A stretch of 45,104 nt of DNA from a virus (taxonomy: Duplodnaviria; Heunggongvirae; Uroviricota; Caudoviricetes), in the IMG/VR virus record IMGVR_UViG_2619619135_000002; one strand, 5' to 3'. The notes under the pieces are model-generated. The model had not been told where the DNA came from. It ran no database searches and saw nothing but the letters and a program-made list of their open reading frames with translations. How positions within the stretch are numbered: position 1 is the first letter of the stretch; the number at the start of each line of letters is the position of its first letter. This document shows, one piece after another, positions 26,083-27,421 of the stretch. Both the position numbers and the translations under genes were made by a program.

Positions 26083-26157
26083 TGGAGCGGGTAGCGGGAA
26101 TCGAACCCGCATCATCAGCTTGGAAGGCTGAGGTAATAGCCATTATACGATACCCGC
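26083..26157 (-). tRNA. tRNA-Gly (anticodon UCC), glyT-like, CCA encoded
   Basis: 75-nt cloverleaf read by hand: 7-bp acceptor stem GCGGGTA/TACCCGC, anticodon stem TCAGC/GCTGA, loop CUUCCAA (anticodon UCC), T-arm GCGGG-TTCGATT-CCCGC, 3' CCA. Near-identical to E. coli glyT as recalled, except for two compensatory acceptor-stem changes. Confidence 0.85.
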
Positions 26158-26374
26158 ATACTGTACTGGCTTCCGGAATCACACGAATTACCAGGAAAGC
26201 CAGCACTGGTCCTTCAGACGATAGTAACACCCCTGTGAACACAAAAATAACCGTCTTCCGGACCAGTCAGAATACTAACGACAGTTTTTCAGACATCAAA
26301 AATATATTTGGTGTTCAGTTTTAAATATGTGTATACATCTGTATCAGAAATATACAACTTATATCATCACTGAA

Positions 26375-27421
26375 TTAAAAATCTTTCGTTATTTCTCTGG
26401 CCGTCTGATTAAAACGTTCCTCTTCCAGTTCCACGCCAATCGCCCTGCGTCCCAGCGACAGTGCCGCTTTTATTGTCGACCCCGACCCCATAAAAAAATC
26501 TGCGACCAAATCGCCTGGACGGCTGCTGGCAGTAATTATCTGACGCAACATATCCGCCGGTTTTTCACAGGGATGCTTACCCGGATAAAACTGCACGGGC
26601 TTGTGCGTCCAGACATCCGTATAAGGAACGACAGCCGATACGGAAAAATAACGCCGCAGTGATTTGTATTCCTCCAGCAGGCTGGCATATTGCCGGTTCA
26701 GTTCGCTGTATGTGCTGACCAGCTGGTGGTGTGGCTTTTCCAGTTCCCCGCGCTGATGTTTTTCTGCCGCAACACGCGCAAACAACGCCTGCAGTTTTCT
26801 GTAATCAGCTTCGCTCGGTAACTGCCACTGACTGGTGCCAAACCAGTGCGAAGTCATGTTTTTCTTTCCGGTGGCTTCAGCTATCTGTTTTGACGTTATC
26901 CCCAGTGATTCACGCGCATCACGGAAGTAAGAAATCAGCGGGGCCATGACGTGCTGTTTTAGCTCGCGTCCCTTTGCCGCATAGCCGTCATTTTTGGGCT
27001 GGTATGGCCCCTGATAATGTTCTGCAAACAGAATGCGTTCTGTTGCAGGGAAATACGCCCGCAGGCTTTCCTTGTTGCATCCGTTCCAGCGTCCGGACGG
27101 CTTCGCCCAGATAATGTGGTTCAGCACATTAAAGCGTTCACGCATCATGATTTCGATATCAGATGCCAGGCGATGACCACAGAACAGGTAAAGACTTCCG
27201 GCAGGCTTCAGTACACGCCAGAATTGCGCCAGACACTGGTCCAGCCATTTCAGGTAATCATCGTCGCCCTTCCACTGGTTATCCCAGCCCTCGGGCTTCA
27301 CTTTAAAGTATGGCGGGTCTGTGACTATCAGATCGACAGAATTTTCCGGTAAGGTCTGGATAAATTCCAGGCAATCAGCGTTGATTAACTCGCAACTGGA
27401 TATTTTTACAGTATTAGCCAT
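26375..27421 (-). CDS. Orphan DNA methyltransferase, beta-class amino-MTase (N6-adenine or N4-cytosine)
   Basis: 348 aa; catalytic motif IV DPPY near the N-terminus (LIVTDPPYF) and SAM-binding motif I FxGxG near the C-terminus (FFMGSGST), the beta-class order. No adjacent restriction endonuclease. Confidence 0.85.
   Translation of the reverse strand: MANTVKISSCELINADCLEFIQTLPENSVDLIVTDPPYFKVKPEGWDNQWKGDDDYLKWLDQCLAQFWRVLKPAGSLYLFCGHRLASDIEIMMRERFNVLNHIIWAKPSGRWNGCNKESLRAYFPATERILFAEHYQGPYQPKNDGYAAKGRELKQHVMAPLISYFRDARESLGITSKQIAEATGKKNMTSHWFGTSQWQLPSEADYRKLQALFARVAAEKHQRGELEKPHHQLVSTYSELNRQYASLLEEYKSLRRYFSVSAVVPYTDVWTHKPVQFYPGKHPCEKPADMLRQIITASSRPGDLVADFFMGSGSTIKAALSLGRRAIGVELEEERFNQTAREITKDF

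Follow-up and report, generated by a model that had tools for sequence, protein, structure and literature searches.

The interval between the late antiterminator gene Q and the lysis genes of the lambdoid prophage analysed here is probably a stack of independent 'morons' that follow Q, with an orphan DNA methyltransferase of the M.EcoGII family and a functional, host-derived tRNA-Gly(UCC) that would provide extra GGA/GGG decoding. The 45,104-nucleotide stretch of DNA under study (hereafter, the window) is essentially one prophage of the E. coli type whose late genes lie on the minus strand, as do all genes, promoters, terminators and RNA elements located below. Among complete E. coli genomes, its closest relatives are prophages integrated between potB and potC; the closest, GF31, shares 97.8% identity across 3.2 kb around the methyltransferase/tRNA block, and the structural genes of ECL27829 are 96.8% identical to those of the window. 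Rfam further detected a sok antitoxin RNA and DicF in the window, as is typical of Qin/Rac-like prophages.

Layout of the interval between Q and the lysis genes

Moving with transcription from Q, one meets pR'/tR'-like elements, a PemK/MazF-like ORF, terminators, a 65-aa ORF, the methyltransferase gene, tRNA-Gly, a spacer and the lysis genes. Q (28706-29401; 231 aa) was recognised by Pfam Phage_antiter_Q (E=9.4e-93), and its counterpart in GF31 is annotated 'bacteriophage antitermination protein Q'. On the other side, Pfam and the annotation of relatives define a lysis cassette (24402-25493) of two holins (Phage_holin_8 and Phage_holin_3_7) and an M15 endolysin, separated from tRNA-Gly by a non-coding spacer of ∼590 nt. 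The block thus sits where an earlier, sequence-only reading had put it. That reading had listed the methyltransferase and the tRNA as the contents of the interval, and both stand, yet it left out the PemK/MazF-like ORF, the 65-aa ORF and six or more terminator-like hairpins of the coding strand.

A promoter scan placed a pR'-like promoter (TTGCAA-17-TATATT) at 28722-28694, and a terminator scan found a tR'-like intrinsic terminator (stem 28639-28624 plus T run, within 28615-28722); we predict pR'/tR' function for them because their location directly after Q fits the lambdoid pR'/tR' layout. Lambdoid late-region morons lie between Q/pR'/tR' and the lysis genes and have a promoter and a terminator of their own; the cargo has this position and terminators, and its promoter is a candidate. 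Terminator-like sites are abundant in the interval, numbering 14 versus 4.0 +/- 2.4 in shuffled sequence. Two such hairpins occupy 27891-27957 (terminator and repeat scans), and the stretch 27891-27917 is a 27-nt direct repeat (93% identical) of the tR'-like terminator at 28615-28641. This repeat brackets the PemK/MazF-like ORF (28111-28512; 133 aa; Pfam PemK_toxin, E=7.6e-14; phrog_15698 and phrog_1936, 'MazF-like growth inhibitor'), next to which no antitoxin gene was evident. Homology to phiP27 and Stx2 phages stops exactly at 27915. The 65-aa ORF (27572-27769; phrog_331, E=1.4e-37) has a weak helix-turn-helix match, with Pfam TrmB scoring below cutoff, and travels with the methyltransferase gene, upstream of which it is also found in relatives. 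A further terminator-like site lies at 27568-27585. At the distal end, the terminator scan revealed an intrinsic terminator-like hairpin followed by T8 (25802-25829), the likely end of the tRNA transcription unit.

A prophage tRNA-Gly(UCC) and its cassette

ARAGORN called a single tRNA in the whole window, tRNA-Gly(tcc) at 26083-26157(-), and the Rfam tRNA model scored it at 65.6 bits against a gathering score of 29, so that the near-copy of glyT proposed from the sequence is genuine. Aligned to glyT of a K-12 derivative (L003:601-675), it is identical at 73 of 75 nt and departs from it only at linear position 6, where T replaces C, and at 66, where A replaces G. These two bases form one compensatory pair, canonical 6:67, which has changed from C6:G67 to U6:A67. 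The sequence-only reading had counted two compensatory acceptor-stem changes (6:66 and 7:65) and had itself named the alignment to host glyT as a check; the altered 6:67 pair survived it, whereas the second did not, A7:U66 being the host state. The anticodon arm (27-43), D arm, T arm, discriminator and acceptor pairs 1-5 and 7 are all identical to glyT. GlyRS recognises its substrate through U73, G1:C72, C2:G71, G3:C70, C35 and C36, and every one of these identity elements can be read in the phage sequence, together with a cloverleaf and the UCC anticodon. Judged by these features, the gene most likely encodes a host-derived tRNA-Gly(UCC) that is functional. Compared with E. coli glyT (tRNA-Gly2, UCC; thrU-tyrU-glyT-thrT-tufB operon), it is distinct in the 6:67 pair, in its prophage location and in its promoter and flanks. 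By reading the sequence, we noted a candidate sigma-70 promoter of the cassette, TTGATG-16-TAGTAT, at 26272-26299; it matches the consensus at 8 of 12 positions, which is under the promoter-scan threshold, and its TTG and TAT columns are invariant across a six-locus alignment.

This tRNA is widespread. The exact 75-nt sequence occurs in 107 of the first 120 viral contigs matching the U6:A67 pattern, and at least 269 complete E. coli chromosomes have a best match that is ≥99% identical. In SerU-LTIIb (KU052038), an identical tRNA-Gly (75/75 nt) lies directly after a 'methylase' gene and before the holins, in the same slot and with the same downstream spacer. However, SerU-LTIIb and most relatives carry a second tRNA directly upstream (tRNA-Thr, or one that combines a Thr body and a UCU anticodon), where the window has a non-tRNA leader. 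Among the first 120 U6:A67 contigs, 85 have tRNA-Thr(UGU) three bases upstream of tRNA-Gly, and other prophage arrays add Ile(CAU), Lys(UUU) or Arg(UCU). Cassette make-up is accordingly highly variable (Gly alone, Thr-Gly, Arg-Gly or four-gene arrays). The phage tRNA-Thr of the U6:A67 lineage is one base off host thrU. Copies of glyT identical to the host gene occur just as commonly in other prophage tRNA arrays; at least 120 viral contigs have one, mostly in Ile-Lys/Arg-Thr-Gly arrays in which the Thr gene is exactly thrU. As far as these comparisons go, tRNA-Gly is usually the last gene of a widespread Thr(UGU)-Gly(UCC) prophage cassette copied from host thrU/glyT (tufB operon), of which the window retains Gly only. 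Capture from the host is suggested by the near-identity of the sequences and by the presence of thrU and glyT in one host operon.

In an exact-pattern scan of one genome per bacterial species, the U6:A67 form of glyT was found only in three Motiliproteus genomes and in Escherichia ruysiae. We discarded capture from another enterobacterial host with a U6:A67 glyT, as no enterobacterial species outside Escherichia matched; for the same reason, U6:A67 looks like a state of the phage lineage. A decayed tRNA-Thr in the 93-nt leader (26158-26250) was considered as well. The leader shares an 8-mer with the T arm of tRNA-Thr, but its alignment is within shuffle noise (z=0.9) and the apparent stem is not conserved in five related loci.

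The methyltransferase, the PemK-like ORF and the tRNA cassette are separate insertions into a shared slot and not a co-adapted block, since the methyltransferase gene is found upstream of the cassette at 27 of the 92 U6:A67-lineage loci versus 4 of the 88 loci of the host-identical lineage, and the PemK-like ORF is missing from relatives such as ECL27829 and from all 71 informative loci (0/71). Transfer RNA genes between Q and the lysis genes are likewise known from 933W-type Stx phages (ileZ-argN-argO upstream of stx), although those are other tRNA species and the window has no toxin genes. The 933W-type genes decode host-rare codons, and codon compensation is the usual explanation (PMC7946995, citing Bailly-Bechet 2007).

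Probable codon supply, a possible counter-defence role and a conserved RNA hairpin

We propose that tRNA-Gly probably has its own promoter and adds GGA/GGG decoding, given a prophage that uses these codons about twice as often as host genes do. Relative to a baseline of 19 host genes flanking related prophages, in which GGA and GGG together make up 20% of Gly codons, their share is 37% in late/lysis genes (p=1e-8) and reaches 52% in the early ones (p=2e-15). GGA alone accounts for 13.3% of Gly codons in late genes versus 9.8% in the host, which is not significant (p=0.13), and for 27.7% in early genes. ACA, AGA and AUA likewise follow this pattern. The idea, raised beforehand, that the tRNA supplements GGA decoding for late genes is thus weakly supported: the combined GGA/GGG excess fits it, but the excess is bigger early. 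Codon use fits the standard codon-compensation view rather than a late-gene-specific role. A single additional tRNA gene may contribute little beyond what the host's own genes provide, and a benefit from it is something that we infer.

Alternatively, the tRNA might be a selectively neutral passenger, i.e. a remnant of tufB-operon capture that persists in a recombination-prone moron slot and confers no benefit. Its near-identity to the host gene and the variable composition of the cassette would agree with this, as would the window having lost the Thr gene and carrying in its place a leader that bears no significant similarity to a tRNA (z=0.9). Yet the 75-nt tRNA has stayed identical in 107 of 120 contigs while the flanks diverged to 77-93%, which suggests purifying selection, and the cassette members all decode A-ending codons (AUA, AAA, AGA, ACA, GGA) that the prophage over-uses. 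We therefore regard neutrality as unlikely.

On a par with it, and thus likewise doubtful, is the explanation that the phage tRNA replaces or outnumbers host tRNA-Gly inactivated by a tRNA-targeting effector or toxin, with U6:A67 making it a poorer substrate. There is precedent for the general idea: phage tRNAs neutralise PARIS, retron-Eco7 and P2 Old (PMC11464382, PMC12409363, PMC12445682), and the usual partner of our tRNA, tRNA-Thr(UGU), is the main P2 Old target and a major AriB target. P2 Old kills through cleavage of tRNA-ThrU, and the targets cut by AriB are Lys(UUU) and Thr(UGU); tRNA-Lys(UUU) is likewise found in related arrays. Besides, tRNA-Gly and tRNA-Thr are substrates of the toxSAS FaRel2, and Gly-tRNA-Gly is the substrate of AtaT2. 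Both glyT and the phage copy have CAG(28-30)/CUG(40-42) plus A37, matching the 'paired CNG' motif reported for P2 Old substrates. Against this, the anticodon arm is the same as in host glyT, so the phage copy should be as sensitive as the host tRNA to an anticodon-arm nuclease. T5 tRNA-Lys (versus PARIS) and phage tRNA-Thr (versus P2 Old) are, like the window tRNA, phage-encoded isoacceptors of host tRNAs, but these known resistant tRNAs are substituted in the anticodon stem-loop at the cleavage site, whereas the anticodon arm of the window tRNA has no substitution. Only pair 6:67 differs, and nothing at or near a cleavage or recognition site. FaRel2, the one acceptor-reading toxin whose determinants are mapped, reads pairs 1, 2, 4 and 5 (PMC11559606), not 6, and acceptor pairs 1-5 are unchanged here. 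Moreover, at least 120 viral contigs carry host-identical glyT in the same kind of array, which argues that the changed pair is not needed for the function of the cassette. Finally, the P2 Old substrates named in the text consulted do not include tRNA-Gly, and the window is without the Thr gene. The evasion of a host nuclease through an altered acceptor stem, as suggested in the sequence-only reading, is thus not supported, in view of a single changed pair, an unaltered anticodon arm with unaltered pairs 1-5, and common host-identical copies. On the same grounds, given that host-identical copies are just as common and that neither the anticodon arm nor any of acceptor pairs 1-5 has changed, we regard U6:A67 as, most likely, neutral and a mark of a single cassette lineage, not an evasion device.

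Downstream of the tRNA, an inverted-repeat search (repeat I1), folding and covariation identified a long RNA hairpin of 33 pairs (25891-25974), with a minimum free energy of -43.6 kcal/mol (z=-3.4). It lies ∼110 nt from tRNA-Gly on the same strand and travels with the tRNA cassette. The hairpin accompanies 113 of the first 120 U6:A67 contigs and is present in 368 of 5,426 complete E. coli genomes; in the host-identical glyT lineage, BLAST gave some match to the hairpin region at 27 loci, with about 8 of the 15 alignments listed exceeding 100 nt. Over 24 distinct sequences, 98.7% of the cells in the 33 pairs are paired, versus 35-55% when the partner is slid. Pairing is kept in 21 pairs that vary, many of them changing via G-U, and the apical helix is replaced wholesale in some variants. 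Such G-U intermediates are possible only for the RNA of this strand. We found no credible Rfam match for it, and a full-text search of a library of papers with the hairpin and tRNA sequences returned no match. An ORF at 25839-26045 (68 aa) was rejected as a gene: it has no Pfam or PHROG match, and 1-, 2- and 4-nt indels among relatives break its frame, owing to which the region is better explained as structured RNA. As a guess, the hairpin could be a site for RNase III or have a function as the 3' trailer of the transcript that carries the tRNA. Somewhat less probable even than the two preceding explanations is that the Thr(UGU)-Gly(UCC) cassette and the 33-bp hairpin form a module buffering tRNA-directed immunity by dosage or decoy, with the hairpin as the controlling regulatory or processing RNA. 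The immunities in question may be P2 Old, PARIS, toxSAS or GNAT toxins, and the hairpin may be, e.g. an RNase III site or a 3'ETS-like sponge. We continue to favour a host-derived tRNA-Gly with extra GGA/GGG decoding.

The orphan methyltransferase

The second cargo gene (26375-27421) encodes a 348-aa beta-class N6-adenine DNA methyltransferase. Pfam N6_N4_Mtase (E=2.6e-44) spans residues 29-340, with DPPY at residue 35, FMGSG (FxGxG) at residue 310 and the target-recognition domain lying in between; since motif IV (DPPY) precedes motif I (FxGxG), the order is that of the beta class. Pfam, PADLOC and PHROGs detected no restriction endonuclease beside it (its neighbours are the 65-aa ORF, the PemK-like ORF and the tRNA), and there is hence no adjacent cognate endonuclease as in a Type II restriction-modification system. 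The domain match, the motif order and the lack of an endonuclease confirm the orphan beta-class enzyme recognised previously from its DPPY and FxGxG motifs.

M.EcoGII, an experimentally characterised E. coli prophage protein of 349 aa, methylates adenine whatever its sequence context and is silent in the lysogen (PMC5778455). The window protein is ∼85% identical to it over the full length, 96% across the catalytic half at the N-terminus and 82% over the stretch of residues 160-237 that makes up the target-recognition domain, values that are approximate because the M.EcoGII reference was taken from the supplement text of PMC11551740 with a few reading errors. The homology is full-length and includes the four-helix target-recognition domain. 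Identity amounts to 88% with Anc291, 71% with SUPREM/Anc284 and 86% with the enzyme of phage 1720a-02, which has been named very similar to M.EcoGII (PMC5778455). M.EcoGII, Anc291 and SUPREM showed no sequence motif on RNA, and the reconstructed ancestral proteins all methylate DNA (PMC11551740). Both M.EcoGII and the window protein are prophage-borne orphans with the same order of DPPY, target-recognition domain and FxGxG; they also share a neighbourhood downstream of Q, where DNA searches always placed the methyltransferase gene in phiP27, 1720a-02 and many Stx2 phages. They differ by ∼50 substitutions, 14 of them among the 78 residues of the target-recognition domain. We looked in the PDB for a close relative with a solved structure and found none, the best matches being distant beta-class enzymes such as RsrI, CcrM and MboIIA.

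Given 85-88% identity to M.EcoGII and Anc291 and 86% to the 1720a-02 enzyme, the window methyltransferase belongs to the M.EcoGII family and is predicted to have non-specific m6A activity. By homology, it would most likely N6-methylate adenines in any sequence context. The gene is oriented like Q and the lysis genes, and the several intrinsic terminators between pR' and the methyltransferase gene probably keep it silent in the lysogen. After induction, Q-modified RNA polymerase would read through these terminators, so that the methyltransferase would be made only then; m6A would be spread broadly over progeny DNA, leaving it resistant to many restriction systems. A TTGACA-17-GATACT site at 28075-28047, found in the promoter scan, could drive some Q-independent transcription, which would count against Q-only expression. 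We infer both the timing of expression and the non-specificity of this single enzyme. M.EcoGII is thought to shield phage DNA from restriction, and the anti-restriction role put forward earlier gains support and sharper focus from the ∼85% full-length identity to this non-specific enzyme. That the methyltransferase instead recognises a specific sequence, or serves as a regulator (epigenetic or RNA) acting on phage or host genes, is very improbable: M.PflMI, the closest relative with confirmed site specificity, belongs to the same wider family, M.EcoGII also methylates RNA in vitro, and the accompanying 65-aa ORF with its weak helix-turn-helix match occupies the usual place of restriction-modification controller proteins, but the protein is 85-88% identical, target-recognition domain included, to enzymes shown to be non-specific, and far more distant ancestral reconstructions (71% identity) are still largely non-specific.

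In summary, both features of the interval are ordinary, being common prophage cargo that is already catalogued. The main value of the present analysis lies in correction: the methylase gains a precise and experimentally grounded family, and the 'altered' tRNA turns out to be an ordinary, widespread glyT copy. The structurally conserved hairpin that travels with the cassette and lacks a credible Rfam match is possibly a useful point in its own right. A further point that may be useful is that copies of thrU and glyT, all but exact, are very frequent in lambdoid prophages; thrU is the host tRNA attacked by P2 Old and PARIS, while FaRel2 and similar toxins that read the acceptor stem have tRNA-Gly and tRNA-Thr as their substrates.

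Elements flanking the tRNA-Gly gene

In most relatives, the tRNA-Gly(UCC) gene of the prophage is preceded by a tRNA-Thr gene. In its place, the window and five viral contigs have a leader of ~108 nt (window 26158-26265, (-) strand), which in these six sequences displayed neither significant similarity to any tRNA nor a conserved stem. On the other side, ~110 nt 3' of tRNA-Gly, lies a conserved RNA hairpin of 33 pairs (window 25891-25974, (-) strand). Across 24 distinct sequences, its pairing is kept in 98.7% of cells, with many changes proceeding via G-U and some being double compensatory. 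Among the matches listed, 113 of the 120 viral contigs that carry the U6:A67 tRNA also have the hairpin; among complete E. coli genomes, 368 out of 5,426 contain it, and no credible match to it was obtained in Rfam.

Anticodon variation and a nuclease motif

A tRNA annotated as tRNA-Arg(UCU) in Escherichia phage SerU-LTIIb (L004 1122-1197) has the body of the cassette tRNA-Thr(UGU), from which it differs by G to C at anticodon position 35, plus G23A and A30G. It is apparently a Thr scaffold whose anticodon has been switched. Besides, in the four-tRNA arrays with host-identical glyT (IMG/VR contigs L135-L254), slot 2 is occupied by homologous tRNA bodies bearing the anticodons UUU, UCU, AAA, UAA and CAG, and some of these slot-2 tRNAs have aberrant anticodon loops that ARAGORN could not assign.

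Both glyT and the prophage tRNA-Gly copy (window 26083-26157, (-) strand; tRNA positions 27-43) contain CAG(28-30)/CUG(40-42) together with A37. They match the "paired CNG plus A37" motif described, in the accessible part of PMC12445682, for tRNAs cleaved by P2 Old; Gly is absent from the P2 Old substrates named in that part.

Accessory genes and prophage type

Immediately 5' of the M.EcoGII-like gene, relatives keep a 65-aa ORF (27572-27769, (-) strand; phrog_331) with a weak helix-turn-helix match and a weak TrmB match. This position, directly upstream of a methyltransferase, is the usual site of R-M controller proteins, and the ORF product may regulate the methyltransferase. A PemK/MazF-like ORF (28111-28512, (-) strand), with no antitoxin gene evident beside it, is located inside a 724-bp insert (region 27891-28641). 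Direct-repeat copies of the tR'-like terminator, each 27 nt long, flank this insert at 28615-28641 and 27891-27917 and are 93% identical. ECL27829 is among the relatives without this insert. In the early region, an 834-aa protein (window 32555-35059, (-) strand) matches phrog_14719 over its full length. Its matches to NACHT, HSDR_N (restriction-enzyme N-terminus) and a PADLOC methyl-directed REase model are weak and all sub-threshold; the encoding gene is possibly a defence gene of STAND type.

Of the RNA markers, the sok antitoxin RNA (window 31702-31876, (-) strand; 110 bits), near whose position hokD is annotated in relatives, and the DicF sRNA (window 40118-40169, (+) strand; 76.7 bits) are both present and characterise the prophage as Qin/Rac-like.
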